The notes below the pieces were generated by a model. That model was given only the letters and a program-made list of their open reading frames with translations. It was not told the DNA's origin and searched no databases. Of a DNA stretch of 64,000 bases, positions 2,879-63,842 are shown one piece after another. The stretch is from Chloroflexota bacterium (GTDB lineage: Bacteria > Chloroflexota > Limnocylindria > Limnocylindrales > CSP1-4), in NCBI GenBank assembly GCA_040905225.1, contig JBBDRY010000110.1, forward strand, positions 26,395-90,394, read 5' to 3'. A program made the translations under genes and the position numbers. Position 1 is the first letter of the stretch; the number at the start of each line of letters is the position of its first letter.

Positions 2879-4317
2879 CTAGGCCAGGTCGGCCGCCGTC
2901 ACGCCTGCCGGCAGCGGCTCCAGGACCGATTCCGGCTGCACTCGCGCGACCACATCTGGCGGAACCCGGCACATCGGCGGGAAAGTCTCCGGCGGAGCTG
3001 GCTTGGTCATATCGAAGATCAGCTTGGTCTCCATCGGCCCCTTCTCCTCGCGGTGGTAGCCGTACGTCACCGGATTGAGGTGGCCGCCGAGGAAGTTGGG
3101 CAACATCGTCAGGTCTCGATCGGCCTGGAAACGCGTGGCCATTGCCCAGAGGGTGTCGACCTCGTTGAAGACATCGACGTCGTCGTCGACCACGAAGACA
3201 TGCTTCAAAAGAGGGTCGACCGCCAGCGCTGCGACTGCGGCGATCTTGGGCTCACCCACTACCCGCTTCTTCATCGAGATGTACAGGTGCGAGCGCGACA
3301 TGCCTGAGAGCGGCAGGTTCACGGCCGTGACAGAGGGCATCGCCTCTTTGACCCGGCGATAGATGGAGCCCATGCGTGGCAGCGCGCCGAGGATCGAGTG
3401 CTCGGTGTGGGCATTGAAGACGTCCACGAAGATCGGCTTCGCGCGCATCGTGATCGCGGTGATCTGGATGTACGGCTGCGGCCCGACGCGCGTGTAGTAG
3501 CGCGGGTACTCGCCGAACGGCCCCTCGACCTGTGTCTTCTCGGGATCGGTGTCGATGATCCCCTCGATGATGATCTCGGCCCGCGCCGGCACCTCGAGAT
3601 CGACCGTCTTGGCGCGAACCATCTCGAGCGGTTCGCCCATCAGCCCGCCCGCAACCTCGAGCTCGCCGCCGATCCCCTCGAGCTTCGACACGGCGCCCAT
3701 GAGCACAGCCGGGTGATGGCTGATAACCAGCGCGATCTCCGCTGGCTTCCCGAGCTCGCGCATGCGCCGCAGGATGTAACCGGTGTGGTGGGCAGGGTTG
3801 ACCTGGATGCCGACCTGGCGCCCTGGTATTGGTGGCGGAAGATGCCAGCGTTGACGCGGCCGCTGTCCGGGTCGCGCATGAGCGTCGCGGCTGAGGTTAT
3901 GTAACGCCCCGCGTCGAGCTCGTTGTGGACGAGCATCGGCAGCCGCCCAACGTCGATGTCGTCACCGGTCCAGACGACCTCCTGCACCGGCGCCGCGGAG
4001 GCATCAATAGTGGTAGTCGGGATGCGGTTGCCCTCACGCTTGGCGTACTCGGGGACCATGCCCTTTACATCGGTCCCGATCGAGAGCGCCAGCCGCTCGT
4101 AAGTGGCGTGCAGGTTGAGAAGCAGCGGCATCGGCGAGCCGCCGATGTTCTTGAACAGCACAGCCGGGAAGCCTGGGTAACGCGCCGGGTCGTCCTCGAT
4201 CCGATCGACAATCGCCGTCGCCTCGAACTCCGGATCGACCTGGGAAGAGACGACCTTCAGCTGGTCCGGGTACGTCCGAATCAGGAGGTCGAGATAAGTG
4301 CGCAGATCCTGGGCCAT
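2879..4317 (-). pseudogene. UbiD-family prFMN-dependent decarboxylase, copy 1, split by a 1-nt frameshift (probable assembly error)
   Basis: ORFs 3640..4317 and 2879..3763 align end to end with the intact paralog 28229..29731. The frame is lost at GGCGCC(C)AGG around 3815-3827, a C-homopolymer. Confidence 0.75.
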
Positions 4318-4555
4318 CGCGGCGCGGCGCCTCCGGAGTGACGCTGGATTGACGTCTTGGTACAGGCTATCGACGGGGCTGCTTGTCGCAACGCCGCGTT
4401 GCTATTATCGCGGCCGGACCACGATGCGGGACGGTGGTTCAGATAGCGGAATGATCGACCGCCCCAGCGGCGATCTGAGGAGGGTAGGGAGCGCGTGAGC
4501 ATTCACGTCCTTGGCGTCGCCGCGAGCCCCAGATCCACAGCCACGACTCGCCTCG

Positions 4556-6847
4556 ATGACTGAAAGCCCGGTCAGCCCGCTCGGCCAGCGCCTCCCAATG
4601 GTCGACGCGGTTGCCCGTGTCACGGGTGCGATGGACTACGCGCTCGACATCGAGCTTCCGGGCATGCTCCAAACGCGGATCCTGCGCAGCCCGCACGCCC
4701 ACGCCCGATTGGTCCGCATTGACGCGAGTCGCGCGGCCGCCCTCCGCGGCGTGACGGTCCTGACGCGCGACGACATCCTCGGCCGCGAGGACGTGAACCC
4801 CACTTTCGGCTTGTTCATCCGCGATCAGCCGCCCGTTGCCCTCGACAAGGTCCGCCACGTGGGCGACCCGGTCGCGGCCGTCGCCGCGCCGGACGACGCC
4901 GCGGCAGAGGAGGCGCTCGACCTGATCGAGGTCGAGTACGAGCCCTTGCCGGCGGTCTTCGACGTCGAAGCAGCTCTGGAGCCCGGGGCGCCGATCCTCC
5001 ACGAGGGGCCCCGATCGCTGGCCAGCCGCCGGCCGGACATCCTCGCCCGACAGCCCGGCTTCGAAGGCACGAACGTCATCCACCAGTTCATCCAGCGCAA
5101 GGGTGATGTCGATGCCGGCTTCGCGGGGGCCGACGAGGTGATCGAGCACACCTTCTACAGCCCACCCGTCCAGCACGTGCCGATGGAGCCGCATGTCGTG
5201 GTCGCGCGCTGGAGCGACAACCGCCTGACGCTGTGGGATTCGACCCAGGCGCCTAACTGGGTGCAGATCGAGCTGGCCAACCTGTTCAAGCTGTCGGCGT
5301 CGGACGTGCGCGTGATCGTCGGGACCCTCGGCGGGGGCTACGGCGGCAAGATCGACCCGTCAATCGAACCGATCGCCGCCTGGCTGGCGCGCAAGGCAAG
5401 ACGCCCGGTGCGCCTCGCGTTGAGGCGCGACGAGGAGTTCTACACGCACACCAAGCATGCGGCGCGGGTGCGCATCCGCACCGGGGCGAAGCGCGACGGC
5501 ACCCTCGTCGCCCACCAGGCGACGTGCTGGTACAACGGCGGCGCGTACGCCAAGGAGACGCCCGAGAAGATCACCCGCGGCTATGCATCGATGGGCCCGT
5601 ACCGCGTGCCCAACGTCCACGTCGACTCGTTCGGCGTGTACACGAATATCACGCCTTCCGCGGCCTTCCGCGGCTTCGGCATCCCGCAGGTCTCGTGGGC
5701 GCACGAGTCGCAGATGGACATCCTGGCCGACGCGCTCGGGCTCGATCCGCTCGAGCTTCGGCTGCGCAACGTCCTCAAAGTCGGGGACCAGTTCTCGACG
5801 GGTGAGACGATCACCGAGGACCTGCACTATCGCGAGCTGCTGAAGATTGCGGCGGAGAAGATCGGCTGGTCGGAGGGCGTCGGCCCGTTCCGGGAGGGCT
5901 CGAAGATCCGTGCCCGGGGGATCGCCACGATCATCAAGGGCATGAGCGCGTTCCCGTCGTCGGCGGTCGCCAAGCTCAACACCGACGGGTCGCTCAACGT
6001 GCTCACGGGCAGCGTCGAGATGGGCCAGGGAGCGCTCACGGCGCTGACGCAGATAGCGGCCGACGAGGCGACCCTGCCGATGAGCCGCGTTCGCGTGTCC
6101 ACACCGGATACCGCGGTGACGCCGTGGGATCAGATGTCGGCGGCGTCGCGCACGACGAACAACATGGGCAAGGCCATCCGTGGCGCGGTCGTCGACGTCA
6201 AGAAGCAGCTGCTCGAGATGGCGGCGCAGCGGTTGGAGATCTCAGTCGACGATCTCGATGTCGTAGCCGGAACGGTCCAGCCCAGGGGCTCTCCCGACAA
6301 GGCGCTGCCGTTCGCCGCCCTCCTTGGTCCGGCGCGGGTGGGCAATCTCCTCGGCCGTGGCTCGTACCAGGCCGTATCGCACCTCGACCTGGACGGCCAG
6401 GGGATCGGCTCCCCGCAGTGGCATCCGTGCGTCTGCGCGGCCGAGGTGGAGGTCGACGAGGAGACTGGTCGGACGACGATCCTCAAGATGCACATGGCGG
6501 TCTACGTGGGCAGGATGATCAATCCGCTCCAGTGCGAGCTCCAGGTCGAGGGCGCAGCGACGTTCGGCATCGGCCAGGCGCTGTTCGAGGAGATCCTCTG
6601 GGACGAGAGCGGCAACCTGACCAACCCCAATCTGTCCGACTACATGGTTCCCTCGATGCTCGACCTCCCGGCCGAATTCGGCGAGACGATCCTCGAAACC
6701 GACACGAACGAGGTGCACGGCATCGGCGAGACGGGCCTGCCGGCAGTCATGCCGGCGGTTGGCAACGCCGTCAGTCGGGCGATCGGCAAGCGCATCCCGA
6801 CTCTGCCGCTGACGCCCGAGAAAGTGCTGCGCGCCATATGGAGCTGA
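4556..6847 (+). CDS. xanthine dehydrogenase-family molybdopterin-binding large subunit (CoxL-like hydroxylase, set 1)
   Basis: ~765 aa. N-terminus LPMVDAVARVTG...LRSPHAHARL and active-site loop SAAFRGFGIPQ are XDH-type, not the CODH AYXCSFR motif. First ATG is 4556 (a TTG lies at 4511). Overlaps the next gene by 10 nt. Confidence 0.85.
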   Translation: MTESPVSPLGQRLPMVDAVARVTGAMDYALDIELPGMLQTRILRSPHAHARLVRIDASRAAALRGVTVLTRDDILGREDVNPTFGLFIRDQPPVALDKVRHVGDPVAAVAAPDDAAAEEALDLIEVEYEPLPAVFDVEAALEPGAPILHEGPRSLASRRPDILARQPGFEGTNVIHQFIQRKGDVDAGFAGADEVIEHTFYSPPVQHVPMEPHVVVARWSDNRLTLWDSTQAPNWVQIELANLFKLSASDVRVIVGTLGGGYGGKIDPSIEPIAAWLARKARRPVRLALRRDEEFYTHTKHAARVRIRTGAKRDGTLVAHQATCWYNGGAYAKETPEKITRGYASMGPYRVPNVHVDSFGVYTNITPSAAFRGFGIPQVSWAHESQMDILADALGLDPLELRLRNVLKVGDQFSTGETITEDLHYRELLKIAAEKIGWSEGVGPFREGSKIRARGIATIIKGMSAFPSSAVAKLNTDGSLNVLTGSVEMGQGALTALTQIAADEATLPMSRVRVSTPDTAVTPWDQMSAASRTTNNMGKAIRGAVVDVKKQLLEMAAQRLEISVDDLDVVAGTVQPRGSPDKALPFAALLGPARVGNLLGRGSYQAVSHLDLDGQGIGSPQWHPCVCAAEVEVDEETGRTTILKMHMAVYVGRMINPLQCELQVEGAATFGIGQALFEEILWDESGNLTNPNLSDYMVPSMLDLPAEFGETILETDTNEVHGIGETGLPAVMPAVGNAVSRAIGKRIPTLPLTPEKVLRAIWS

Positions 6848-7317
6848 TCGAGTTCGAGCTCAACGGCCGCCAGGAGGCTGTTGCCGCGCGCCCGGACGAG
6901 CTACTGCTCGACCTGCTGCGGCGGCAGTTCCACCTGTTCAGCGTCCGCGAGGCGTGCGGCATCGGCATCTGTGGCACCTGCACGGTCGTCGTCGATGGAC
7001 GCCAGGCGAGTGCGTGCCTCGTCCTCGCCGGGCAGGCGTCGGGTCGGTCGATCGAGACGGCGGAGGTACTGTCGGAAGACGGCACGCTGCATCCCATCCA
7101 GCAGGCGTTCATCGAGCACAACGCGTTCCAGTGCTCGTACTGCACGCCCGGCTTCCTCCTTGCGACGCGGGAGCTCCTGGCGACGAATCCTTCGCCGAGC
7201 GAGGACGAGATCCGTCAGTTCCTGGCCGGGAATATCTGTCGCTGCGGGAGCTACGTCAAGATCATCGAGGCCGTGGTCGATGCGGCCGGCCGGCTGCGCG
7301 CGCAGCCGCAGCGATGA
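6838..7317 (+). CDS. (2Fe-2S)-binding small subunit of molybdenum hydroxylase (CoxS-like, set 1)
   Basis: CGIGICGTCTV, CSYCTPGF and CRCGSYVKI motifs. The start sits inside the stop region of the large subunit. Confidence 0.85.
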   Translation: MELIEFELNGRQEAVAARPDELLLDLLRRQFHLFSVREACGIGICGTCTVVVDGRQASACLVLAGQASGRSIETAEVLSEDGTLHPIQQAFIEHNAFQCSYCTPGFLLATRELLATNPSPSEDEIRQFLAGNICRCGSYVKIIEAVVDAAGRLRAQPQR

Positions 7318-8150
7318 TGGCAGAGGTCGCCGACCGGACGGCAATCGCGTTCCGCCACCGATCAGCTGGCCGCGGCCGCGCGGTTGTCCTGATCCACGCG
7401 TTCCCGGTCGATGGGCGGCTCTACGACGTGCAGCTTTCCGCTGCCGAAGCCGGACGCCTGGCAGCCCGAGTAATCGCCGTCGATCTGCCCGGGTTCGGGC
7501 AGACACCTCTGCCGGACCCGGCACCGGACGTTCTGACTGTGGAGTTCCTTGCCGAGGCCGTCTGTGGCTGGATCGAGGCGGAGAGACTCGGTCCGGCGAT
7601 CGTGGGTGGCGTCGCCATCGGCGGTTACGTGGCGATCGAGCTGGCGGCTCGCCGGCCCGACCTCGTCGCGGGCCTGGTATTGATCGGTTGCAAGGCGGCG
7701 CCGGACAACCCAACGATGGCGCCGAAGCGCGAAGAGCTCGCCCAACTCGCGCTCGATCGAGGCGCCGCGGCCGTGGCCGATGAGCTCCACGCCCAGCCGC
7801 TCGGTCCGCACGCCGACGGCGCGGTGAAGGCTCGGATGCACGAGATGATCTCGTCGGCGGATCCACGCGCGATCGCGGCGCTGATCCGAGGAATCGCGCG
7901 GCGACCGGATCCAGCGCCGGTGCTGCCCGGGCTGGCCATGCCGTCCCTGGTGATCTGTGGCGAGAGGGACCCGTTCAGCCCGCTCGACGAGGCCAGGCGG
8001 GTCGCTCAGCTGATGCCGAACGCGGACCTTGTCATCATCAAGGGAGCAGGCCACATGGCCCCGCTGGAGGCTCCCATCGCCGTGAGCCGTGCGTTGGCAG
8101 GCTTCCTCGATCGACTGAACCAGAACCAAACACCAGGAGGAGCAACGTGA
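7314..8150 (+). CDS. alpha/beta hydrolase embedded in the Mo-hydroxylase operon
   Basis: 278 aa with HAFP...GFG...GGVAIGGY nucleophile-elbow context. ATGA overlap with coxS-like and GTGA overlap with coxG-like. Confidence 0.7.
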   Translation: MMAEVADRTAIAFRHRSAGRGRAVVLIHAFPVDGRLYDVQLSAAEAGRLAARVIAVDLPGFGQTPLPDPAPDVLTVEFLAEAVCGWIEAERLGPAIVGGVAIGGYVAIELAARRPDLVAGLVLIGCKAAPDNPTMAPKREELAQLALDRGAAAVADELHAQPLGPHADGAVKARMHEMISSADPRAIAALIRGIARRPDPAPVLPGLAMPSLVICGERDPFSPLDEARRVAQLMPNADLVIIKGAGHMAPLEAPIAVSRALAGFLDRLNQNQTPGGAT

Positions 8151-8668
8151 TCATCGACCAGAACGTGACCATCCCCGCACCGCCCGAGAAAGTCTGGGAC
8201 TTCATGATGGACGTGCCTGAGGTGAGCACTTGCGTCCCCGGCGTTGAAGGGTTCGCGCAGGTCTCACCCGACGTCTACAAGGGGATCCTGGGCATCAAGG
8301 TCGGCCCGATCGGTGTCCGGCTCGAGGGGCAGGTCACGTTGGTCGAGCAGGATCGCGACAACTGGCTGGCGCGGATGGATGTCGAAGCGACCGACCGGCG
8401 CATCCGCGGCGCAGTCAACGCCAAGGCGTGGATGAAGTTGACACCGCGGGAGGATGGCCAGACCGACGTCTTCATCCACACGGACGCGTCAATCTTCGGC
8501 AAGCTGGGCCAGTTCGGCCAGGCAGTGCTGCGCAAGAAGGCCGACCAGATGGTCGCCGAGTTCGCCGCGAACATGTCGCGCCGGCTGACCACGCCGCCTG
8601 CCGAAGCGGAAACGTTGGCCGAAGCGCCGGCCGAAACGTCCGCCGAAGCGCCCGCCGGCCAGTCATGA
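8147..8668 (+). CDS. coxG: CoxG-family (SRPBCC) Mo-hydroxylase accessory protein
   Basis: N-terminus MIIDQNVTIPAPPEKVWDFMMDVPEVSTCVPGVE is typical of CoxG. Ala/Glu-rich C-terminal tail. Confidence 0.7.
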   Translation: MIIDQNVTIPAPPEKVWDFMMDVPEVSTCVPGVEGFAQVSPDVYKGILGIKVGPIGVRLEGQVTLVEQDRDNWLARMDVEATDRRIRGAVNAKAWMKLTPREDGQTDVFIHTDASIFGKLGQFGQAVLRKKADQMVAEFAANMSRRLTTPPAEAETLAEAPAETSAEAPAGQS

Positions 8669-8749
8669 CCTTGAGCCTGCCCGAGACAGACTCGCGCGCC
8701 CCATTGGATACCGTTGTACTCAACGGTACCGACTGCTAAATTCGCCCTG

Positions 8750-9646
8750 ATGCCAAGATCGATTGCCTTCCTGCGTCCCGGCTCCATCGAGGAGGCCGTC
8801 GCGATGCTGGACGAGCACGGCGAGGACGCGAAGGTCGTGGCCGGCTCAACGGCACTGACGATCATGCTGCGCGAGCGGCTGATCGACCCCGGGGCGCTGG
8901 TCTGGATCGGCCGGCTCCCCGAGCCCCAACTCTCGAGGATCGAGCACGCGGATGGTGAGCTGCGGATCGGCGCGCTGGTCACGCATCGTGACGTGGAGCG
9001 CGACTCGACGACACGGTCAGTGCTGCCGGTGCTCGCGGAAACCTTCGGCAAGGTCGCCAACGTCCGCGTGCGCAACCAGGCCACGGTCGGCGGAGTTGTT
9101 GCCGAGGCCGACTATGCGTCCGATCCTCCGGCGGTATTTCTGGCCCTTGACGCGGAGGTGGACGTCCGCGGCCCGAACGGGGCGCGCACGGTCGCGATGA
9201 GCGAGTTCACGCTCTCCTTCTACTCGACCGCGTTGGAACCGAATGAGATCGTTACCGCGGTACGCGTGCCGGTGCCCCAGCCCGGCACGCATGCCGTTTA
9301 CCACAAGTTCGTGACCCGCTCGTCGGAGGACCGCCCGTGCATCGGGGTGATCGGGGTCGTCCGGCTCGCAGCTGACGGGCGAACCGCGGAGGACGTGCGT
9401 GTGGCCGTCGGAGCGGCGGCCGAGATCCCTCAGCGGTTCACGGAGCTCGAGCAGGAGCTGGTCGGCAAGGAGCTGGACGACGCGGCGATCCGAGCCATTG
9501 CCGATGGTTATGCCGAGCGGATCGACACTCTCGACGACATGCGCGGATCAGCCTGGTATCGCACACAGATGGTGCGAGTCTGGGTGCGTCGGGCCCTCGA
9601 GGACGCGCGCACCGCGGCGCAGGGCGGAGACGCGCAGGCAGCCTAA
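8750..9646 (+). CDS. FAD-binding medium subunit of molybdenum hydroxylase (CoxM-like); the only one in the window
   Basis: AFLRPGSIEEAVAMLDEHGEDAKVVAGSTAL is the FAD_binding_5 N-terminus. ORF track start 8714 is TTG; first ATG is 8750. Confidence 0.8.
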   Translation: MPRSIAFLRPGSIEEAVAMLDEHGEDAKVVAGSTALTIMLRERLIDPGALVWIGRLPEPQLSRIEHADGELRIGALVTHRDVERDSTTRSVLPVLAETFGKVANVRVRNQATVGGVVAEADYASDPPAVFLALDAEVDVRGPNGARTVAMSEFTLSFYSTALEPNEIVTAVRVPVPQPGTHAVYHKFVTRSSEDRPCIGVIGVVRLAADGRTAEDVRVAVGAAAEIPQRFTELEQELVGKELDDAAIRAIADGYAERIDTLDDMRGSAWYRTQMVRVWVRRALEDARTAAQGGDAQAA

Positions 9647-9696: not shown

Positions 9697-10017
9697 TCAG
9701 CGAACCGAGTAGTCGGACAGGATCTTCCTTGTCGGCCTGCCCTGAGCGTACTGAGCGGCAAGCTCGCGCACCCCGAGCATCAGCTCGCTGGCGGCATATG
9801 CATCGAGCGCCTCGCGGTCGCGCCAGGTGAGCAGGTAGTAGTGCGTGCCGGTCTCGAAATCGCCGAAGAAGCGGCCTTCGACGAAGCCCGGGAACCCGCC
9901 GATCTGCTCGATCGTGCGTCGCGCGATCGCCCGTGCGTCCTCGGGAGTCAGGTCGGGCGCCTGCCACTCGACGAGAGTCGAGATCGGCCCACCGTTGAGC
10001 TTGGGTGAGTCATCCAT
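9697..10017 (-). CDS. antibiotic-biosynthesis-monooxygenase (ABM/Dabb)-like small protein
   Basis: 106 aa ferredoxin-like ABM-type sequence. Overlaps the stop of the IDI-2 gene, so it is co-transcribed. Confidence 0.5.
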   Translation of the reverse strand: MDDSPKLNGGPISTLVEWQAPDLTPEDARAIARRTIEQIGGFPGFVEGRFFGDFETGTHYYLLTWRDREALDAYAASELMLGVRELAAQYAQGRPTRKILSDYSVR

Positions 10018-14338: not shown

Positions 14339-14344
14339 AGGTCC

Positions 14345-14941: not shown

Positions 14942-14947
14942 GTCGGT

Positions 14948-51427: not shown

Positions 51428-51481
51428 TCAGAAAGAGAAGGGCGCCGGGTTATCGTCCCGGCGCCCGATAGTTCCTGCGCG

Positions 51482-52552: not shown

Positions 52553-52652
52553 CGACGGTGATCAGAGAACGAGCAAGGGTGGACATGCGGCCTCCTACAA
52601 CCGGGCTATGTACGCCTCTGCATCTAACGGTATACCGATGGTCAACGGCGGG

Positions 52653-53535: not shown

Positions 53536-53766
53536 TCACTCGTAAACGGTGAAATTAGCCTCGTACCGGCAACGGCAGCCGGCCGGCCGGGTGCAGTCGG
53601 GGACGGGCACAGATGGGAGCGTGGACGGGGTGTACATCTGGCCGTCGGAGCGGGCGCACGCTTCGCAACGCGTCGAATCTGCGGCGACCACGGCCACACC
53701 ATCGATATCGCCTTCGAGGTACAGGCGCTGGAAGCGCGCGATGAGATCGTCGTGCGGCGCGTTCAC
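53536..53766 (-). CDS. small cysteine-rich protein, paralog 1 (76 aa, unknown family)
   Basis: IDGVAVVAAD...C.AC...C...GCRCRYE..FTVYE. ~55% identical to 61477..61674. Sits between the GntR gene and the hydrolase in one operon. Confidence 0.5.
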   Translation of the reverse strand: MNAPHDDLIARFQRLYLEGDIDGVAVVAADSTRCEACARSDGQMYTPSTLPSVPVPDCTRPAGCRCRYEANFTVYE

Positions 53767-54534: not shown

Positions 54535-54604
54535 GGGCACCTGCGGCCGAGTATACGGCAGCATGCCGCGGCCGCAAGAAGCACGGGACCGATAGGCTAC
54601 GGTC

Positions 54605-55789: not shown

Positions 55790-56468
55790 ATGATCTCTGT
55801 CGACGGACGCGAGGCGCTTCGGGCGCTCGCCAACCGGCCCGCGGTCGTGACGATCGATCTGCATCGCGGACACCTCGATCCCGAGGTCGCGACACTCCCG
55901 ATGCCTGCCGATCGGGCCGCGGCGCTTATGGAGCGGGTCGTCCCGCTGCTGGACCGCTACCGCGCGGCCGGGCTGCCGGTGTTCCACCTCGTGACCTGGT
56001 ATCGGGACCGCTCGGAGATCCTGAGCAACCCCATCTGGCGCTATCGCGCGGAGCGCGCGGCCGGGCTCCGCAAGCGGATCGCAGACCACAACATCGACGG
56101 AATGCCAGGCATCGAGCTGATGCCCGGAATCGCCCGGCCGGGGGACCGGATCCTGACGACGAAGAAGCGCTACGACTGCTTCGTTGGGACCGACCTGGAG
56201 TTTCGTCCTTCGCTCGGGCGACCATGACGCGCTCTTCGTGATGGGCGTTAACACCAATTCGTGTGTCCTTGCGACGTCGACTGCGGCATCGTCGCGGGAC
56301 TTCGCGGTCTTCGTGGTCGACGACGGCTGCGACTCGATGCTCGGCCGTGACCTCCACGAGGCGGCCGAATCGGTGATCAACGGATCGTTCGGATGGATCG
56401 TGACCGGCGAGCAGACGCTCGAGCTGCTCGCCGAACGAGCTGGCGCCGTCGGCGCCGCGGGAGGTTGA
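55790..56468 (+). pseudogene. isochorismatase/cysteine-hydrolase-family amidase with a 1-nt frameshift (probable assembly error)
   Basis: ORFs 55790..56227 and 56184..56468 join as ...KKRYDCFVGTDLEFVLRSGDHDALFVMGVNTNSCV... if one T is removed from the TTT at 56201-56203. Confidence 0.7.
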
Positions 56469-56689: not shown

Positions 56690-57808
56690 GTGACCGTCGA
56701 GCTCAACGGGATCCGCCTGCGCAACCGGCTGCTGACCTCGGCCAGCCTGCTCGGCTACGGTGCGGGCAAGGGCCGGCTGATCCTCTACGGGCTGTCGCCG
56801 ATCGCCCAGTGGGTGCCGCTCGAGCGGTTCGGCGCCGTCGTGACGCGGACCATGACCGTCCAGCCCCGCGAAGGCCACTTCACGCTCCGCGAGGACTGGA
56901 AGATCTGGCAGTTCCCCGAGATGCTCGGCATGTATTCGCGCGCTCTGCGCCGCGTAGACGCGGGCTGGTTGAACGCTTTCGGCTGGTCGAACATCGGGAT
57001 CGATCGGTACTTCGAGGAATACGAGCGGAGGACGCGGAAGCAGAACCGCATTCTCTCGCTAGGTGGCTTCTCTGCCGAGGAATTCGGCTCGCTCGTTGAA
57101 ACCGTGAACCAGCGCATGAAGCCGGGCGAGATTGCCGCGGTCGAGTTCAACGTCTCGTGCCACAACGTGAACTTTCCCTTCGAGACGATCCTGGAGGACG
57201 TCCTGGCGACCGCGGTTCCGCTGTCCCGCCACCCGGTCATCCTCAAGCTCTCGCCCGACTACGACTACGTCGAGCACGCCCACATGGCGGCGCGCCACGG
57301 AGTCGCCGCCCTGACCGCCATCAACGCCGTCAAGGCGCTGCGGCTGGATCCCAGGACCGGGGAGCCGCTGCTCAAGAACCGCTACGGCTCGCTGTCCGGC
57401 CGTGCCATCAAGCCGATCGGCCTGCGCATCGTTTCGGAGCTGCGGGAGGCCGGCGTCCGCCTGCCGATCATCGCGTCGGCCGGGATCCGGACGTTCGACG
57501 ACTGCCGCGAGTTCTTTTGGGCAGGTGCAGACGCAGTCTCGCTCGGCTCTGCGGTCTGGCTCAAGCCGATGCCGCTCTACGCGCTTGGCCCGCTCGAGGG
57601 TCTGCGCATCCGCCGGCTGATCGGCAAGGTCGAGCGTTACGACGTGCCCGAGCGCAAGCCTCAGCCGATCGACTTCACCCCGCACCCGCTCGAGGCTGAG
57701 CCGTACGAGGCTGAGCCGTACGACGCCGAGCCGGACGAGGCTGAGCCATACGAGGCCGGCGAGGGCGTGCGCGACGAGGCGGAGCTCGCCGGCACCGGGA
57801 CTCGTTGA
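56690..57808 (+). CDS. dihydroorotate dehydrogenase-family protein (PyrD/PreA-like TIM-barrel flavoenzyme) with an acidic EAEPY-repeat tail
   Basis: EFNVSCHNVNFP (cf. NLSCPN) and IIASAGIRTFDD are DHOD-family blocks. The C-terminus is EAEPYEAEPYDAEPDEAEPYEAGEG. Confidence 0.7.
   Translation: MTVELNGIRLRNRLLTSASLLGYGAGKGRLILYGLSPIAQWVPLERFGAVVTRTMTVQPREGHFTLREDWKIWQFPEMLGMYSRALRRVDAGWLNAFGWSNIGIDRYFEEYERRTRKQNRILSLGGFSAEEFGSLVETVNQRMKPGEIAAVEFNVSCHNVNFPFETILEDVLATAVPLSRHPVILKLSPDYDYVEHAHMAARHGVAALTAINAVKALRLDPRTGEPLLKNRYGSLSGRAIKPIGLRIVSELREAGVRLPIIASAGIRTFDDCREFFWAGADAVSLGSAVWLKPMPLYALGPLEGLRIRRLIGKVERYDVPERKPQPIDFTPHPLEAEPYEAEPYDAEPDEAEPYEAGEGVRDEAELAGTGTR
57682..57756. repeat. 15-bp imperfect tandem repeat x5 (GAGGCTGAGCCGTAC) encoding the EAEPY tail
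   Basis: Read directly. Confidence 0.85.
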
Positions 57809-58422
57809 CCCGAAAGCGACTGTCGGACGCCGGCCCTGGCCGGGAGCCGACCGCTTCGCGCTCAGCAGGGGCCGAAGGCCCGCTGCGGAGGAAGGTCGAC
57901 CGCGACGGCCTCGCTCGTGATCTGGTCGCCGCGGCCGTCCTGCGCGGCACATTCACGCTCCGGTCGGGGCAGACGAGCAGCTACTACATCGACAAGTACC
58001 GACTGACGACCGAGCCTGGGCTGCTCTCGCGCATCACCGATCGACTGGCCGAGATGGTTCCCGAAGGCATCGAGCGTGTCGCGGGCACCGCACTCGGTGC
58101 AGTCCCGCTGGCGACCGCGCTGTCGCTCGCGACCGGCCTGCCATCCGTGTTCGTGCGCGTCGACGCGGCGAAGGACCACGGGACGGGGAAGTCGATCGAG
58201 GGCCGGCTTGACGCAGGCGATCGCGTGGCGCTGGTAGAGGACGTTGTTACCACGGGCGGAGCGAGCCTGACCGCGGTTGAGCTGCTGAACGCGGCAGGTG
58301 CGCAGGTCGTGGCCGTGATCGCCGTGGTCGACCGTGAGGAGGGCGGCCGGGAGCGGTTTGTCGATGCCGGCATCTCGTTCCGCCCGCTTTTCACGGTGAC
58401 GGAGCTCGGAATCGGCGACTGA
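57805..58422 (+). CDS. orotate phosphoribosyltransferase-family protein (PyrE-like)
   Basis: LRGTFTLRSGQTSSYYID and the PRPP loop LVEDVVTTGGAS. TTGA overlap with the DHOD-like gene. Start uncertain. Confidence 0.75.
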   Translation: MTRKRLSDAGPGREPTASRSAGAEGPLRRKVDRDGLARDLVAAAVLRGTFTLRSGQTSSYYIDKYRLTTEPGLLSRITDRLAEMVPEGIERVAGTALGAVPLATALSLATGLPSVFVRVDAAKDHGTGKSIEGRLDAGDRVALVEDVVTTGGASLTAVELLNAAGAQVVAVIAVVDREEGGRERFVDAGISFRPLFTVTELGIGD

Positions 58423-58454: not shown

Positions 58455-59411
58455 CTACTGCGCAGACCGAAATAGCCGCGCCACCAGCGCAAAGGTTCCC
58501 GTGGCCAAGGCGATACCGGTGAGGACCAGCGCTGCGCCGGCGAGCTGGAGGGGGGAGAGCGACTCGCCGAGGACCGGTACTGCCAGGATTGCTGCCGTCA
58601 ACGGGTTGAGCATCAGGTAAGCCGAACCCTCCGATGTCGGCAGTCGACGATGGCTCTCGGCCAGCAGGATCGTCGCGATGGCACCCGCAACGATGCCCAA
58701 CCAGAGGACGGCCAGCCATGCGTCGGGCGGCGGCGACGGTCTGACCAGCGGGTCGCCGGCGGCTATCGCGAGCAGGAGGCCGGACACGCCGAGGAGCGCG
58801 AAATTGGTGAACGTGATCTGGGTCGGCCTGATGCCCCACGGCCGCTGCCACCGTCGCGACAGAAGCATGAATAGCGCCGTTCCTACGGCGGTAGCCCCCG
58901 CCACGAGCGCACCCTCGACGCGGATGCCCGCGACATCGAAGCCGGCGATCAGGAGCGTTCCAGTGAAGGCAAGTCCGAGGCCGGCGACCGCGGCGACCCG
59001 TAGCGGCTCGCGCAGGACGAGCGGCGCGGCGGCCGAGGCCAGCACCGGATATGCGCCTGCGATGAAGGCCGTGATCGCCGCACCGGTCAGCATGATCGAG
59101 ACGTTCATCCCGATCCCGAACGCAGCGCCTCCGAGAAGGCCGAGCACTACCAGGCGGACGAGCCAGCCCCGCCTCGACGGCGCCGCTCCGGTCGGCGGCG
59201 TCGATGCCGCGTTGCTCGGGCGTCGCAGCCACAGGATCGCGGGCACGAGCACCACGACGGTCACGAGGGAACGCCACGCCGCGAGGGCGAACGGGGAGAA
59301 GCCGTGCAGCGCGACACCTGTGGCGACCCACGACGTCCCGTAGAGCACCGCGGCTCCTATGGCTGACGCCGGCCCGCCCCATCCGTGGCGGCGCTCGTGG
59401 GCTGCGGTCAC
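58455..59411 (-). CDS. DMT/EamA-family transporter (second copy)
   Basis: 318 aa, ten TM segments, two EamA halves. Confidence 0.7.
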   Translation of the reverse strand: MTAAHERRHGWGGPASAIGAAVLYGTSWVATGVALHGFSPFALAAWRSLVTVVVLVPAILWLRRPSNAASTPPTGAAPSRRGWLVRLVVLGLLGGAAFGIGMNVSIMLTGAAITAFIAGAYPVLASAAAPLVLREPLRVAAVAGLGLAFTGTLLIAGFDVAGIRVEGALVAGATAVGTALFMLLSRRWQRPWGIRPTQITFTNFALLGVSGLLLAIAAGDPLVRPSPPPDAWLAVLWLGIVAGAIATILLAESHRRLPTSEGSAYLMLNPLTAAILAVPVLGESLSPLQLAGAALVLTGIALATGTFALVARLFRSAQ

Positions 59412-59550: not shown

Positions 59551-60165
59551 GTGACGGACGGTTCGCCCAGGCGGATCGTGGTCGGGATGTCCGGCTCCAG
59601 CGGCGCGATTTTCGGTATCCGCCTCCTGGAGGTGCTTTCCCGGGTCCCGGAGCTCGAGACCCACCTCGTGATGAGCACCGCGGCCGCACAGACGATCGCC
59701 CTCGAGACCGACTACAAGCCGCGCGACGTCGAGGCGCTGGCGACCAGGAGCTACAAGATCGGCGACATCGCCGCATCGCTGTCGAGCGGCTCGTTCCGGA
59801 CTGATGGCATGATCGTCGTGCCCTGCTCGATGAAGTCCGTAGCGGCCATCGCCTACGGCTACGACGAGAACCTGCTCTCGCGGGCAGCGGACGTGACGCT
59901 CAAGGAGAGGCGCCGGCTGATCGTCTGCCCCAGGGAGACGCCGCTCCACCTGGGCCACCTCCGGGCGCTCACCCAGCTGGCCGAGATCGGCGCGATCGTC
60001 GCGCCGCTGATGCCGGCGTTCTACGGCCGACCAAGCTCGATCGACGATCTCGTGGACCACCAGGTCGGACGCCTGCTCGACCTGATCGGTGTGAACGTCG
60101 AGGGGCTGGCCTTTCGCTGGCAGGGCGCGAAGAGCGCGTCGCCGGAGGCTAAGGCCGATGACTGA
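59551..60165 (+). CDS. ubiX: flavin prenyltransferase UbiX (prFMN synthase)
   Basis: [22 protein letters not shown]...[19 protein letters not shown]...[13 protein letters not shown] aligns across the whole E. coli UbiX length. 204 aa. Confidence 0.9.
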
Positions 60166-61452
60166 CTTCGATCTCGTCGTTCGCAACGGCACCGTCGTCA
60201 CGAGCAACCGGCGACGCGAGGTCGACATCGGTGTGATCGATGGCCGTATCGCATCCATCTCTCGACGCGGCGGACTGAGCGGGACAGGTGACGAGGAGAT
60301 CGACGCGACCGGTCACTATGTCCTTCCCGGCGTCATCGACGGCCACGTCCAGTTCCGCGAGCCGGGCATGGAATACAAGGAAGACTGGATGACCGGCTCC
60401 CGCGCCGCCGTGATGGGCGGCGTCACGACGGTGCTGGACATGCCGAACACCATTCCCCAGACGAGCACGCCCGAGGGCGCGCGGGTGAAGCAGGGGCCGA
60501 GCAGGGCCTGGTCGTCGGCATCAAGGCTTTCCTTGGCATCACCATCGGTGGCATTCCGGCACCGCATGACGGCGCGGTGCTCGACGGCATGCGCGCCATC
60601 CAGAGCGTTGGCCTGCGCCTCGGGTTCCACGCCGAGAACAACGACGTGATGGCGAACGAGATCCGCAAGCTCCAGGAGCAGGGACGCAACGACCCGCTGG
60701 CGCACGTCGAATCGCGGCCCGTGATCGCCGAGGTCGAGTCAATCCAGCGCATGGGCCTTTTCGCCAAGCACACCGGCTGCAGGGTCCACATATTCCATCT
60801 CTCGTCCATGCACGGGCTCGAAATGATCGACGAATGGCGGGACAAGGGCGTCGACTTCACCTGCGAGACGGGCGCCCACTACTGCTTCCTGACGTCCGAC
60901 AACATGAAGGAGCTGGGCCCGATCCTGCGCATGAACCCACCGGTCCGCGAAGCCGGCCACGGCGACGCGCTGGTGGTCGGTCTGGCCGATGGACGGGTCA
61001 CCTCGATCGCTACCGACCACTCCCCGCACACGCGCGAGGAAAAGCTCAATCCCGACATCTGGAAGGCGATCAGCGGGTTTGCCGGCGTCGAGACTTCGGT
61101 GCGCCTGTTCCTGACCTACGGCGTCAACGCGGGCCGCATGACGCTGGAGCAGTTCGTTCGCGCGTCCTCGGAGGGACCCGCCAAGACGTGGTCGATGTGG
61201 CCGCGCAAAGGTGCGTTGGAAATTGGCTCGGACGCAGATTTCACGATCATCGATCTTGAGAAGGAAGGCGTCATCCGCGAGGCCGAGCTGCACGGCAAGA
61301 ACAACATCAACCCGTTCGAGGGCCACGCGACGAAGGGCATGGCAGTGGCCACTGTTGTGCGCGGCAGAGTGCAGATGCGCGACGGCGAGCTCACCGGCGA
61401 ACAGGGTTTGGGCCGGCTGATCTCTCCGCTCGTGCCGGTCGCGGCGGGCTGA
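60158..61452 (+). pseudogene. dihydroorotase-like cyclic amidohydrolase, copy 2, with a 1-nt frameshift in a G-homopolymer (probable assembly error)
   Basis: ORF 60158..~60500 ([23 protein letters not shown]...MPNTIPQT) and ORF 60577..61452 join if GGGG at 60493-60496 is read as GGGGG (…[17 protein letters not shown]…). 8-nt overlap with ubiX. Confidence 0.75.
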
Positions 61453-61476: not shown

Positions 61477-61674
61477 TTGCAGACGCTGTTCCTCGACGGC
61501 GTCATAGACGGAGTGGCGCTGGTCGCCGCCGACGCGAACGCATGTTCCGTGTGCGCCGAAGTCACCGACCGGGCGTACCTCCCCACGCAGCTGCCGCGCC
61601 TGCCGATCTATGGCTGCACCTCGGCGCGGGGATGTCGCTGCCGCTATGAGCCGGGCTTCACCGTGGTTGAGTAG
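61477..61674 (+). CDS. small cysteine-rich protein, paralog 2 (65 aa, unknown family)
   Basis: VIDGVALVAADANACSVCAEV...CTSARGCRCRYEPGFTVVE. Lies between the amidohydrolase and the MoxR gene. Confidence 0.5.
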   Translation: MQTLFLDGVIDGVALVAADANACSVCAEVTDRAYLPTQLPRLPIYGCTSARGCRCRYEPGFTVVE

Positions 61675-61683
61675 ATTCGGCTG

Positions 61684-62568
61684 ATGGACAGCATCGACGC
61701 CGTCGAATCGGGCCTGCGCGAGCGTGGCTACGTCGCTGACCGTGCCCTCGCCACCGCAGTCTTCCTCGGGCTGCGCCTCGGCCGTCCGTTGCTGCTGGAG
61801 GGCGAGGCGGGCGTCGGCAAGACAGAGCTCGCCAAGGTCCTCGCTGAGGCGCTCGGCACGCGGCTGATACGGCTCCAGTGCTACGAGGGCCTGGACGTCA
61901 ACAACGCGGTGTACGAATGGAATTATCCGCGCCAGATGCTCGAGATTCGGCTGCTCGAGGCGCGCGGGATGGCCGACCAGGCCGCCAGGCAGATCTTCGG
62001 CCCCGACTTCCTCATCCGGCGGCCGCTTCTCCAGGCGCTGGAGGCGGTCGATGGCAAGCCGCCCGTCCTGCTCATCGACGAGGTCGACAGGGCCGACGAG
62101 CCCTTCGAGGCCTACCTGCTCGAGATCCTGTCCGACTACCAGGTGACGGTGCCCGAGATCGGCACGATCAAGGCCGAAACGCCGCCGCACGTGATCCTCA
62201 CGTCGAACCGGACTCGCGAGGTCCACGACGCGTTGAAGCGCCGCTGCCTGTACCACTGGATCGACTACCCGTCGAGCGAACGAGAAGTCGAGATAGTGCT
62301 GTCGCGCATTCCCGAAGCGCCGCGTGTGCTCGTGGGGCAGGTGGTGGCCTTCGTCCAGGGTCTACGGCAGGGGGACCTCTCGAAGTTGCCCGGCGTGGCG
62401 GAGACGCTCGATTGGGCGGCCGCGCTGATGGCCCTGGGCGCGGGCGAGCTCGACGATCCGGTGGTCGACGCGACCCTGGGCGTGATCCTGAAGTACGAAG
62501 AGGACGTGCACCGCGTCCGCGGAGACGAGGCGGGCCGGCTGGTCGCGGCCGCGCGCGAGGTGGCTTGA
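61684..62568 (+). CDS. MoxR-type AAA+ ATPase (CoxD-like Mo-hydroxylase maturation factor)
   Basis: Walker A GEAGVGKTE, Walker B LLIDEVDRA. 294 aa. Confidence 0.8.
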   Translation: MDSIDAVESGLRERGYVADRALATAVFLGLRLGRPLLLEGEAGVGKTELAKVLAEALGTRLIRLQCYEGLDVNNAVYEWNYPRQMLEIRLLEARGMADQAARQIFGPDFLIRRPLLQALEAVDGKPPVLLIDEVDRADEPFEAYLLEILSDYQVTVPEIGTIKAETPPHVILTSNRTREVHDALKRRCLYHWIDYPSSEREVEIVLSRIPEAPRVLVGQVVAFVQGLRQGDLSKLPGVAETLDWAAALMALGAGELDDPVVDATLGVILKYEEDVHRVRGDEAGRLVAAAREVA

Positions 62569-63842
62569 TCCAGCTCGACCCGGAGCGGCTGCTGGCCGCC
62601 GCGGTCGGGTTCGGACGCGAGCTGCGTGCCGCGGGCGTGGCGGTGGCGATGCCGCAGACGCTCGATTTCGTCCGCGCGCTCGGCGTGATGGACCTCGGTG
62701 AGCGCGCGGACGTGCGTTCAGCGAGCCGGTCGATCCACGTTCGACGCCGCGAGGACGTCGAGGTCCACGACGCGCTGTTCGATTCTTTCTGGTCCGCGCG
62801 TCGGGAATTGATCGTCTCGAAGCCATCGTCGGAGGCGCCCCACCGAGGCGCATCAGGCCAGGGACCGGACGGATCGGTGACGCCTCCACGGAGAGCCCAC
62901 CCAGGTACGGCCCGCGACTCCACATCGGCCGCGCCGGCGTTCGTCGTTTCGCGGCGGAGCTACAGCCGAGAGGAGCTTCTTCGCCAGCGCGACTTCGACC
63001 GAATGACGCCCGACGAGTTACGGGAGGCAGAGCGCCTGTTCGATCGGCTGGCCACGAGCCTTGCAACGCGTCCGGCGCGCCGCTACGAGATACACGCTCA
63101 CGGCACTCGACTCGCGCCGCGTCCGATGCTCCGGCGCAGCGTCGCGACCGGCGGTGAGCTCGTGGACTGGCTCTGGCGCAGACCGCGCGTGGTTCCGCGA
63201 CCGGTGACACTGCTCATCGACGTGAGCGGCTCGATGGAGTCGCACGCCCGCATGATGTTGCGCTTCGCCCATTCGCTGCGGCGCGTGAATCGACGAGCCG
63301 AGGTGTTCGTCTTCGGCACGCGCCTGACCCGCGTCACCCGGGCCTTAGCTGCGCGAAATGCGGACGAGGCGCTCGCGCGCGTTTCGACCGAGGTTGCGGA
63401 CTGGTCGGGCGGCACGCGCATCGGTGACTGCCTGCGCGAATACAACAATCGTTGGGCGCGACGCGTTGGGTCGTCGGACGGCATCGTCGTCGTGATGAGC
63501 GATGGCTGGGACCGCGGCGACCCGGATCTGGTGGGTACGGAAGCGATGCGGCTGCGTCGGAATTGCCGCCGCCTGCTGTGGCTAAACCCGCTCGCCGCCG
63601 CGGCCGGATTCGAGCCACTCGCGGCCGGGATGGCCGCTGCCGCGCGGCACGTAGATCGGCTGTTGCCGGCCGGCTCGCTCGATGACCTCGAGGATCTTGC
63701 TGGGCTACTGACCGCGACTCGCTGGGGCGGTCGCCCGTCGCCGCAGCGGCAAACCTCTCCGGAGTCGACGCCTGCAATCAAGGCTCGGACCGTAGACAGG
63801 GTGGCTGCGGATCGACGACCAGACGCGACGAGCCCACTCTAG
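62565..63842 (+). CDS. VWA-domain protein (CoxE-like)
   Basis: MIDAS motif LLIDVSGSM. TTGA overlap with the MoxR gene. ~425 aa. Confidence 0.7.
   Translation: MIQLDPERLLAAAVGFGRELRAAGVAVAMPQTLDFVRALGVMDLGERADVRSASRSIHVRRREDVEVHDALFDSFWSARRELIVSKPSSEAPHRGASGQGPDGSVTPPRRAHPGTARDSTSAAPAFVVSRRSYSREELLRQRDFDRMTPDELREAERLFDRLATSLATRPARRYEIHAHGTRLAPRPMLRRSVATGGELVDWLWRRPRVVPRPVTLLIDVSGSMESHARMMLRFAHSLRRVNRRAEVFVFGTRLTRVTRALAARNADEALARVSTEVADWSGGTRIGDCLREYNNRWARRVGSSDGIVVVMSDGWDRGDPDLVGTEAMRLRRNCRRLLWLNPLAAAAGFEPLAAGMAAAARHVDRLLPAGSLDDLEDLAGLLTATRWGGRPSPQRQTSPESTPAIKARTVDRVAADRRPDATSPL

Follow-up and report, generated by a model that had tools for sequence, protein, structure and literature searches.

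A conserved, mosaic catabolic gene set in Limnocylindria-type Chloroflexota with kinship to known N-heterocycle degradation systems

Among the described systems for the degradation of N-heterocycles, lumazine cluster I of Cupriavidus sp. LA-1 combines a xanthine oxidoreductase (XOR)-family dehydrogenase, an Amidohydro_2 isomerase, a UbiD decarboxylase and UbiX (PMC12391406), and the lum operon for lumichrome (riboflavin) catabolism in Nocardioides simplex brings together uracil-ring hydrolases, a thiamine diphosphate (ThDP)-dependent heterocycle decarboxylase, a xanthine oxidase, dioxygenases and an aldolase (PMC12746152). Reductive urate degradation uses a xanthine dehydrogenase (XDH) homolog, a flavin reductase and cyclic amidohydrolases (PMC12507026); its dihydroorotate dehydrogenase (DHODH)-like "X1" family appeared earlier (PMC4016543). 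Here we analyse 64,000 nucleotides from a bacterium of the Limnocylindria (Chloroflexota; GenBank assembly GCA_040905225.1, contig JBBDRY010000110.1, positions 26,395 to 90,394), hereafter the window, in which all positions below are counted and strands are given as + or -, and we find in it a real, conserved and uncharacterised catabolic gene set that is kin to known N-heterocycle degradation systems. One further relative is a classical route: Mycobacterium sp. INA1 reportedly (Kretzer, Frunzke and Andreesen, 1993) converts isonicotinate by two Mo-dependent hydroxylations to citrazinate (2,6-dihydroxyisonicotinate) and is said to continue by ring reduction and imide hydrolysis to a tricarboxylate product, with CoA esters from citrazinate onward; to our knowledge, the route has no known decarboxylation step and no gene sequences exist for it. 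Citrazinate is the 1-deaza analogue of orotate and isosteric with it.

Genes were called with a codon log-odds model and corrected by hand, raw lists of open reading frames (ORFs) being useless at the ~68% GC of the window, and the ~58 genes obtained between 1814 and 63842 were annotated by Pfam and NCBIfam profile searches. The overall comparison covered ~30 loci from Limnocylindria-type metagenome-assembled genomes (MAGs) and soil metagenomes, and ~45 window genes recur together in related genomes. For the counts given below, all window proteins were searched by tblastn against 17 Limnocylindria-type loci anchored on one of the UbiD decarboxylases (UbiD-A); further loci were anchored on the substrate-binding protein of an ATP-binding cassette importer (ABC1; precomputed Pfam labels) or on the hydantoinase-type subunit HyuB (metagenome scan). 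The matches of the UbiD-A genome scan were all MAGs, the best, at 71-87% identity, being Chloroflexota of the Limnocylindria/Limnocylindrales group (a few carry other bin labels), and relatives at ~55% identity came from Binatia, "delta-proteobacterial", Verrucomicrobiota and Eisenbacteria MAGs. A Ca. Limnocylindrales contig (L153) is the closest relative found for the right half of the window, with 80-92% protein identity. The exact UbiD-A protein had a sole match, in an 8-kb Logan contig that carries g20-g25 in identical form, and no related replicon was found among the PLSDB plasmids by megablast with 50 kb of the window.

The association of the gene families is what carries our conclusion. 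A cyclic amidohydrolase resembling dihydroorotase (DHOase; g22, 23425-24846, +) adjoins UbiD-A (g21, 21860-23356, +) in all 17 loci. XDH-type subunits are found in 8-12 of them, a CoxG/SRPBCC protein (8147-8668, +) in 11, the ABC1 genes in 9-11, a type II asparaginase-family amidase (11218-12222, +) in 10, a GntR/FCD regulator (g48, 53780 to ~54470, -) in nine and a PrpF-family isomerase (12219-13436, -) in seven; a lyase of the isocitrate lyase/phosphoenolpyruvate mutase family (ICL/PEPM; 13433-14305, -), an arylmalonate decarboxylase (AMDase)-like protein (g29, with the small protein g28 at 30808-31805, +) and a short-chain dehydrogenase/reductase (SDR; 33566-34399, -) occur in five each, the convergence of g28-g29 with ABC1/SDR being itself conserved. 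Like PrpF and ICL, an RraA-like aldolase/decarboxylase (14345-14941, -) and an F420-type luciferase-like monooxygenase (LLM) oxidoreductase (14948-15811, -) are co-localised in related loci, and the tricarboxylate-pathway families expected from the preliminary description (PrpF, ICL/PEPM, RraA-like) are all present. Elsewhere the families often sit in compact operons of 13-20 kb, and in several loci genes spread over 50 kb here form a single run of 13-18 kb. With L1 to L3 and S1 to S3 for the Mo and 2Fe-2S subunits of the XDH-type enzymes, one such run (L010) reads CoxG-DHODH-UbiX-FAD-L3-S3-UbiD-A-DHOase-ABC1-SDR, the AMDase-like gene lying convergent; a second (L012) has in addition UbiD-B/EamA, the asparaginase, an alpha/beta hydrolase, a small Cys-rich protein, the bicupin and PrpF. 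Loci anchored on the ABC1 substrate-binding protein give a matching picture: L154, also compact, consists of ABC2-UbiD-A-DHOase-FAD-L-S-ABC1, the AMDase-like gene, CoxG, a fusion of DHODH with orotate phosphoribosyltransferase (OPRT) and EamA-UbiD-B-ICL-PrpF, and L156, with a different arrangement of this gene set, of DHOase/UbiD-A, RraA, aspartate dehydrogenase, isochorismatase, ICL, PrpF, asparaginase, GntR, ABC1, SDR, the AMDase-like gene and, further, EamA-UbiD-B-bicupin-4-oxalocrotonate tautomerase (4-OT)-DAO.

The scan anchored on HyuB identified a conserved operon, HyuA-HyuB-CoA-transferase-citryl-CoA lyase, flanked by XDH/CoxG/DHOase (L097), UbiD-B/EamA/PrpF/ICL/GntR (L085) or DHODH (L083) and adjoining core genes in L086 too. 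In the window it comprises HyuA (41266-43359, overlooked by the naive ORF call) and HyuB (43356-45581), which overlap by 4 nt, then a family III CoA-transferase, citryl-CoA lyase (46783-47583) and an alpha/beta hydrolase, to 48445 (all +). A narrower core, made of UbiD-B, UbiD-A, an L1-like and an L3-like subunit, one FAD and one FeS subunit, and ABC1, is found in Binatia-type MAGs and other phyla as well. That ~25 families re-associate independently in many orders is, at the level of sequence, strong evidence for a functional link, to which the presence of one FAD subunit, one UbiX and one GntR adds; UbiX at 59.5 kb, for instance, would serve UbiDs at 22 and 28 kb. The preliminary description had named synteny in relatives as the check and scattered housekeeping paralogs as the objection, and the repeated co-localisation disposes of the latter. 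Its picture of one supercluster holds in that the families recur together, GntR is conserved and a promoter element is common, but a single pathway is no more than a proposal, and the window is a mosaic with duplicated and decayed copies. As a separate observation, six loci (L003, L004, L007, L009, L041 and L156) carry an isochorismatase-family hydrolase and an aspartate dehydrogenase (Asp_DH_C) upstream of UbiD-A; this isochorismatase is only 27% identical to that of the window, from which the aspartate dehydrogenase is absent.

The presence of PyrC-, PyrD- and PyrE-like genes, noticed at the outset, was borne out. g22 passes the models TIGR00857 (pyrC_multi; 337 vs 279) and TIGR03178 (allantoinase; 373 vs 358), and its metal- and carboxylate-binding segment HVHFREPG...MPNTKP best matches true dihydroorotases (3GRI of S. 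aureus, human CAD, 3MPG of B. anthracis), allantoinases and hydantoinases matching less well. In CAD, the Arg and Asn of such motifs hold the carboxylate of the substrate. g52 (56690-57808, +) fails all PyrD models (158 vs 269); its best solved relative is DHODH-B (82 bits), a catalytic-Cys motif (NVSCHN) can be read from its sequence, and it is a divergent class-1 DHODH/dihydropyrimidine dehydrogenase-type flavoprotein. Its tail is acidic, of the form (EAEPY)n. The adjacent g53 (57805-58422, +) passes the pyrE model TIGR00336 (145 vs a cutoff of 106.8). The two genes overlap by 4 nt (57805-57808) and, in L154, form a single fused 534-aa DHO_dh+Pribosyltran gene (14309-15913, JGI Ga0597075_0000002), a Rosetta-stone link which suggests that the DHODH-like and PyrE-like proteins act on the same base. 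No pyrB, pyrF or carAB was found in the window or the related loci examined.

Three XDH-family Mo subunits, each paired with a 2Fe-2S subunit, were recovered as anticipated: L1 (4556-6847, +) with S1 (6838-7317, +), L2 (16464-18776, +) with S2 (15985-16467, +), and L3 (38734 to ~41100, -; block end 41130, an ORF extension to 42717 being spurious) with S3 (38099-38737, -). According to Pfam, the L subunits have hammerhead, MoCoBD_1 and MoCoBD_2 domains and the S subunits two 2Fe-2S domains; all three pairs lie below every NCBIfam equivalog cutoff and are of a generic hydroxylase type. The window has a sole gene for a CoxM-type flavin adenine dinucleotide (FAD) subunit (8714-9646, +) for these three pairs, and in relatives this gene is directly upstream of, and contiguous with, L3-S3. 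L1-like genes adjoin UbiD-A orthologs in Binatia-type operons, and the L2/S2 pair occurs in L004 and L006 with the ThDP-dependent enzyme, a single polypeptide of 602 aa (19977-21785, -) that is present in L011 as well. The best solved match of L3 is 1RM6, the alpha subunit of 4-hydroxybenzoyl-CoA reductase, an enzyme whose FAD subunit carries an extra 4Fe-4S site. The FAD subunit encoded here has, as read from its sequence, a single Cys and no 4Fe-4S insertion, and a dehydroxylating reductase of this type is for that reason not favoured for L3. CoxD-like AAA (MoxR) and CoxE-like VWA maturation proteins are encoded at 61684-63842 (+), and CoxD follows UbiX in L153.

Of the three UbiD decarboxylases that had been expected together with UbiX, two are intact. 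These two, UbiD-A and UbiD-B (g26, 28229-29731, -, in a conserved pair with an EamA transporter, block to 30603), possess all three UbiD Pfam domains (N, Rift-related, C), with TIGR00148 at 306 against a cutoff of 245. The third, the HmfF-like UbiD-B2 (2879-4317, -; 72% nucleotide identity to UbiD-B), is a paralog of UbiD-B that would be full-length were it not split by a single frameshift near residue 189. The flavin prenyltransferase UbiX (59551-60165, +) passes NF004685 (253 vs 188) and TIGR00421. UbiD-A, a decarboxylase of the prenylated flavin mononucleotide (prFMN) type, has as its nearest solved relative the phenazine-1-carboxylate decarboxylase PhdA (7PDA; 362 bits), an enzyme active on a quinoxaline carboxylate too. 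For UbiD-B it is 6H6V (276 bits), which we take to be the furandicarboxylate decarboxylase HmfF. Among plasmids, the closest homolog of UbiD-A (45.7% identity) lies on plasmid 2 of A. aromaticum EbN1 (NC_006824.1, 62067-87551), among genes for an ABC transporter, UbiX, CoA-transferases and idi. The window encodes a type-2 isopentenyl diphosphate (IPP) isomerase (10010-11188, with the hypothetical g10 at 9697-10017, both -; TIGR02151, 363 vs 281) that is kept only in the nearest relatives; an IPP isomerase gene is a neighbour of UbiX/UbiD in the window (type 2) as it is in the phthalate region of EbN1 (idi). UbiX requires a dimethylallyl phosphate donor. The isomerase may be a source of the prenyl donor in prFMN synthesis and not an unrelated housekeeping enzyme.

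Expression of the set may be coordinated by the GntR regulator. Exact palindromes common to the intergenic regions of the window were not found; a motif emerged from cross-genome alignment. At the divergent promoter between GntR and the gene of a DAO-family flavoprotein (54605-55708, +), the intergenic alignment with L153 shows a conserved block, GAGTATACGGCAGCATGCCGC (54549-54570). In 25 related loci the hexamer GTATAC has 34 sites, nearly all intergenic (21 intergenic occurrences, where hexamers of equal composition have a median of 3.5), and they are located upstream of GntR, XDH, the ABC1 substrate-binding protein, asparaginase, ICL, bicupin, ABC2, ThDP, EamA and HyuA. The extended form GTATAC-N4-GCAT(TCTA), often beside a TAGAAT-like -10 box, recurs in L002-L015, L040, L041, L085, L086, L097 and L153-L156. 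The window itself has two GTATAC sites, both intergenic, at the GntR/DAO and ABC2 (52630-52635) promoters, as well as one-mismatch versions with the GCAT co-motif at L3|HyuA (41174-41193) and EamA|g28 (30751-30770); the former is GTATGCCGTGGCATTCTA, the reverse complement of which yields a TAGAAT -10-like box. GTATAC is also the operator of DipR, the GntR/FadR regulator of dipicolinate catabolism (PMC11472048). It could simply be a generic FadR-type site; still, the sequence evidence is suggestive of GTATAC-N4-GCAT as a common, predicted repressor site.

Taken together, these observations incline us, by a little, to read the window as a mosaic of at least ten operons that together would make up a conserved regulon, probably repressed by GntR, with which Limnocylindria-type soil bacteria break down one or a few carboxylated N-heteroaromatic acids. 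The gene families and their linkages rest on results, and from them we infer the substrates, the order of steps and an orotate-like hub; pyridine or pyrimidine carboxylates and orotate-like compounds, as named in the preliminary description, are still the best guess for the substrate. Uptake would be mediated by the NMT1-type importer ABC1 (permease, ATPase, permease and lipoprotein substrate-binding protein; 34366-37964, -), with ABC2, EamA and a major facilitator superfamily (MFS) transporter (18773-19975, +) as additional systems. The three hydroxylases L1/S1, L2/S2 and L3/S3 would share the FAD subunit and CoxG and introduce oxo groups beside the ring nitrogen, UbiD-A and UbiD-B would strip ring carboxylates with the cofactor provided by UbiX, possibly with the help of the IPP isomerase, and the products would funnel into an orotate-like 2,6-dioxo-4-carboxy ring, either orotate or its 1-deaza analogue citrazinate. 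We propose this hub because of the signatures of g22, g52 and g53 and of the isochorismatase-type hydrolase and aspartate dehydrogenase of related loci. The Cys-type DHODH-like flavoprotein would reduce the ring, the DHOase-type amidohydrolase, with its Arg/Asn carboxylate-binding segment, would open it, and the asparaginase-type and isochorismatase-type amidases would liberate ammonia. The remaining aspartate- or tricarboxylate-like skeleton might be processed by the AMDase-like protein, PrpF, ICL/PEPM, the RraA-like protein, and the CoA-transferase with citryl-CoA lyase, ending in aspartate/oxaloacetate or in a tricarboxylate route. HyuAB may act as an ATP-dependent lactamase on a related lactam, and the OPRT, coupled or fused to the DHODH-like protein, could divert the orotate-like base into nucleotides.

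It is tempting to go further, in a proposal that we put forward only tentatively, and to hypothesize that Limnocylindria and some other soil lineages have an undescribed pathway in which pyridine or pyrimidine (di)carboxylates would be brought to orotate or citrazinate by sequential Mo hydroxylations and two kinds of prFMN-dependent decarboxylation. Candidate substrates would be lignin-derived 2,4-/2,5-pyridinedicarboxylate, quinolinate, dipicolinate and isonicotinate; PyrD and PyrC paralogs, the former coupled to a PyrE paralog, would dismantle the ring, its products would enter a lower pathway of the aspartate or tricarboxylate/citryl-CoA type, and the GntR protein would be a GTATAC-binding repressor.

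Several points weigh against the regulon reading. The order of hydroxylation versus decarboxylation is guesswork, the place of the OPRT in a catabolic route is unclear, and the AMDase-like protein, SDR, LLM, ThDP enzyme, bicupin, 4-OT and DAO are not convincingly explained. The majority of the enzymes fall below NCBIfam equivalog cutoffs. Two GTATAC sites in the window, where 1.35 are expected, are not above chance. In related loci, no co-localisation support was found for an alpha/beta hydrolase (abH7; PcaD-like below cutoff, 7314-8150, +), for the hypothetical g23 or for a second EamA transporter (EamA54; 58455-59411, -), for the MFS transporter the sole support is a neighbour of 41% identity in L009, and CoxE is beyond the reach of the comparison, L153 ending inside CoxD. 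A Foldseek search with the AlphaFold model of g36, the substrate-binding protein of ABC1, retrieved only generic neighbours of the NitT/TauT type (11-16% identity), thiamin-, FAMP- and pyrroloquinoline quinone-binding proteins among them, and no substrate call; the sequence search against the PDB gave nothing. Three genes of the window are disrupted, and this copy may be partly decayed. Finally, we found no cultured carrier of the gene set, its relatives all being MAGs or metagenome contigs.

The alternative that survives best, which we nevertheless judge rather unlikely, is that independent operons for different substrates (for example a heteroaryl dicarboxylate operon, a lactam operon acting via HyuAB and a tricarboxylate operon) were gathered as a catabolic island in a flexible region of the genome, with no single substrate and no common regulation. 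The window does have at least ten transcription units with frequent strand switches, and modules shuffle freely among genomes. Compared with L153, it contains as insertions HyuAB-CoA-transferase-citryl-CoA lyase plus ABC2 (41.2-52.5 kb), the isochorismatase (the DAO/4-OT/DHODH/OPRT operon of L153 lacks it), EamA54 and the decayed DHOase plus g57; compared with L002 and L040, the insertions are L2/S2-MFS-ThDP and g23-bicupin. Three Mo enzymes, three UbiDs and four or five transport systems would also suit several substrates, and a perfect GTATAC is found at just two window promoters. On the other hand, that ~25 families re-associate in differing orders and in distant lineages would be unexpected for unrelated operons, a single FAD subunit, a single UbiX and a single GntR create cross-dependencies, the DHODH-like and OPRT genes are fused in one locus, and the operons have a promoter element in common.

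A second alternative, which we consider improbable, regards the locus as a variant of pteridine or flavin catabolism (of the lumazine/pterin or lumichrome/alloxazine type), in which the DHOase-like enzyme would open the fused uracil ring, UbiD-A decarboxylate the resulting heteroaryl carboxylate, the XDH-type enzymes hydroxylate the freed C-H and the other enzymes degrade the remaining ring. Lumazine cluster I, which likewise occurs in soil bacteria and varies in organisation between phyla, resembles the window in its three-subunit XOR-family hydroxylase, its amidohydrolase-superfamily ring enzyme, its UbiD acting on a heteroaryl carboxylate and its UbiX (PMC12391406). UbiD-A and the DHOase-like gene are always neighbours, PhdA accepts a quinoxaline carboxylate, and Amidohydro_2 genes stand beside UbiDs and XDH in Binatia-type operons. 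Yet the cluster is defined by an Amidohydro_2 DHLI alpha/beta isomerase, a CobW-like GTPase helper (LA1_0143) and a pterin deaminase, and by Pfam and NCBIfam no window gene matches PF04909 (Amidohydro_2) or CobW, nor are there pterin/cytosine-type deaminase families; the window has instead a DHOase-type (Amidohydro_1) enzyme, two UbiD types, three Mo enzymes, the DHODH-like/OPRT pair and a large lower pathway. Membership of cluster I, compared by gene families, is therefore rejected. In the Binatia-type operons (L033:5376-8342; L029:7476-8315), genes for DUF3891, Amidohydro_2 and a second NMT1 protein are found directly upstream of UbiD-B/UbiD-A; these operons have a LysR regulator, and their layout is nearer to the lumazine cluster than that of the window.

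The lum operon offers a second template for the pteridine/flavin variant, uracil-type ring opening, amide hydrolyses, heterocyclic-acid decarboxylation and xanthine-oxidase-type hydroxylation being followed by dioxygenase, hydrolase/hydratase and aldolase steps that lead to central metabolites in a cluster of ~25 genes, as here (PMC12746152), and the window does hold a ThDP enzyme, a bicupin, hydrolases and an RraA-like aldolase. The lum decarboxylase, however, is the two-subunit ThDP enzyme LumK/L, whereas the window has UbiDs and a ThDP enzyme of one 602-aa chain, and the operon requires the P450 LumU, the Rieske dioxygenase LumABCD and the extradiol dioxygenase LumE, none of which has an intact counterpart here (no P450, no extradiol dioxygenase family and no intact Rieske protein in the window). 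Compared by gene families and description, membership of the lum operon fails on its defining genes. Moreover, g21 shares no more than 31-32% identity with alphaproteobacterial UbiD+UbiX loci, possibly but not necessarily of the type of XCDC, the xanthine-8-carboxylate decarboxylase of lumazine cluster I, and the coupling of DHODH and OPRT would be left unexplained.

Other known systems share parts of this scheme. The urate cluster of E. coli and gut anaerobes has, like the window, an XDH homolog, a dearomatising flavin reductase, cyclic amidohydrolases and ureido/amide hydrolases, and both would follow the template of reduction and then hydrolytic opening; it differs in lacking UbiD/UbiX, OPRT and a tricarboxylate/CoA lower pathway, in its subfamilies (YgfK, SsnA, YgeW-Z) and in being anaerobic. 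The INA1 isonicotinate route matches our proposal in its reported Mo hydroxylations, ring reduction, imide hydrolysis, tricarboxylate product and CoA involvement, and differs from it by its CoA-ester intermediates and by having, as far as we know, no decarboxylation. The nic/pic and Eubacterium barkeri nicotinate routes also start with XDH-family hydroxylation, and that of E. barkeri has an amidohydrolase-superfamily ring opener, a PrpF-family isomerase (Mii) and an ICL-family lyase (Dml); in contrast to them, the window has no NicC/PicB monooxygenase, NicX, two-Cys maleate isomerase or B12 mutase, the NicX and NicC families having no match among window genes and the isochorismatase not being NicF-like by NCBIfam. 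As for the HmfFG (furandicarboxylate), PhdAB (phenazine-1-carboxylate) and EbN1 phthalate systems, the likeness lies in UbiD-B being nearest to 6H6V and UbiD-A to PhdA; they lack the DHOase/DHODH/OPRT trio and the asparaginase, and only the hmf cluster has an XDH-type enzyme, which acts on a CoA ester. The dip cluster for dipicolinate is rejected, being monooxygenase-based and Moco-independent. Our literature searches found no paper describing the gene combination of the window, and nothing matching for citrazinate/isonicotinate genes, orotate catabolic clusters or pyridinedicarboxylate decarboxylases; the claim that the combination falls outside described pathways stands to that extent, but the same logic operates in three recently described pathways, those of lumazine, lumichrome and reductive urate degradation.

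That the PyrC/PyrD/PyrE-like genes are anabolic or serve salvage, leading from an environmental precursor through orotate to UMP or being the organism's own pyrimidine genes, is very improbable: g22 passes pyrC_multi, g53 passes pyrE and the DHODH-OPRT fusion would suit the path from dihydroorotate through orotate to OMP, but g52 is far under the PyrD cutoffs with a mere 82 bits to solved DHODH-B, pyrB, pyrF and carAB are not nearby, g22 is always beside UbiD and XDH genes and never beside pyr genes, and the decayed second DHOase copy argues for a dispensable function.

The remaining genes qualify the initial picture. A maleamate-type pathway had been suspected from an isochorismatase-family amidase and a maleate-isomerase-like gene, and this nic/pic reading fails: g29 scores 86 bits against arylmalonate decarboxylase and 63 bits against maleate isomerases, keeps the equivalent of Cys188 and has Gly at the position of the second Cys, so that with its single catalytic Cys it is rejected as a maleate isomerase, and the amidase (55790-56468, +; followed in its operon by 4-OT) is frameshifted at a TTT run (~56206), its best NCBIfam matches being weak ones to BiuH and RutB. 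The ring-opening amidases are otherwise confirmed with the DHOase-like enzyme, HyuA/B and the asparaginase. HyuA and HyuB are below the caprolactamase and acetophenone carboxylase cutoffs, HyuB has an acetone-carboxylase-gamma-like tail, and citryl-CoA lyase, preceded by the CoA-transferase, passes NF004868 (292 vs 193). The tautomerase, bicupin, transporters and GntR were all found as described, and the exception is the Rieske-like oxygenase: the gene at 1814-2869 (-) is a remnant with the catalytic domain only (PF11723), has no homolog in related loci and lacks the CxH...CxxH motif, so a functional Rieske oxygenase is rejected. Also present, and not listed in the preliminary description, are the CoA-transferase, citryl-CoA lyase, ThDP enzyme, LLM, DAO, SDR, type-2 IPP isomerase and CoxD/CoxE.

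The third disrupted gene, the second DHOase copy (60158-61452, +), has lost ~28 aa, is frameshifted and carries HVQ in place of the HxH motif (HVH in g22). Two of the three disrupted genes have one 1-nt frameshift and are otherwise undamaged, and similarly split UbiD-A matches are seen in the long-read MAG loci L040 and L041; some disruptions may be assembly errors, not pseudogenes. ABC2 (48486-52513, -) consists of a fused permease, an ATPase with a TOBE domain and an SBP_bac_1 protein, and adjoins core genes in L009, L011, L041 and L154; in ABC1, g36 (36885-37964) has an (APVVTP)n linker behind its lipobox. The two cupin domains of the bicupin (27020-28135, -) are joined by a His/Gly-rich linker, GHGHEHGGNGHGGGHGGHGGGEH, and the bicupin gene is paired, in the window as in L011:3952-6150, with a DUF262/GmrSD_N gene (25928-26977, -), which suggests a non-defence role for this member of a family usually read as restriction/defence. 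Two small Cys-rich paralogs of ~65-76 aa, g47 (53536-53766, -) and g57 (61477-61674, +), are 52% identical to each other and have no Pfam match; the family, also seen in L012:17191-17385 and L153:4757-4987, is conserved beside an alpha/beta hydrolase (52653-53495, -, in the window) and may be a zinc-ribbon-like partner protein. g23 is apparently unrelated to the catabolic set. GC dips to 60-62% at 1-2 kb and 32-34 kb, and these low-GC patches (0.60-0.62; 1-1800 and 32100-33300), with a weak DUF5677 ORF at the left edge (1-1800) and a matrixin-like secreted Zn protease (HELGHTLGLAH) plus a lipoprotein, respectively, look like unrelated or foreign insertions; the protease region (32-33 kb) drew no support from related loci. 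No tRNA genes were found in the window, and neither in it nor in three compact loci did an Rfam family reach the gathering score; riboswitches therefore offer no hint about the ligand.

Little is known about the carbon and nitrogen sources of Limnocylindria-type Chloroflexota, uncultured bacteria that are widespread in soil, and a regulon of ~25 families for N-heterocyclic acids, if true, would give them a concrete niche. It would also mean new substrates for UbiD decarboxylases and Mo hydroxylases, both of biocatalytic interest, and the recruitment of biosynthetic PyrC/PyrD/PyrE-type enzymes to ring degradation, and it could provide the missing genes for classical pathways known without them, such as isonicotinate/citrazinate breakdown. 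This hypothesis can be tested directly in vitro, with no need for cultivation, by means of the gene set, the fused DHODH-OPRT and the putative GTATAC operator.

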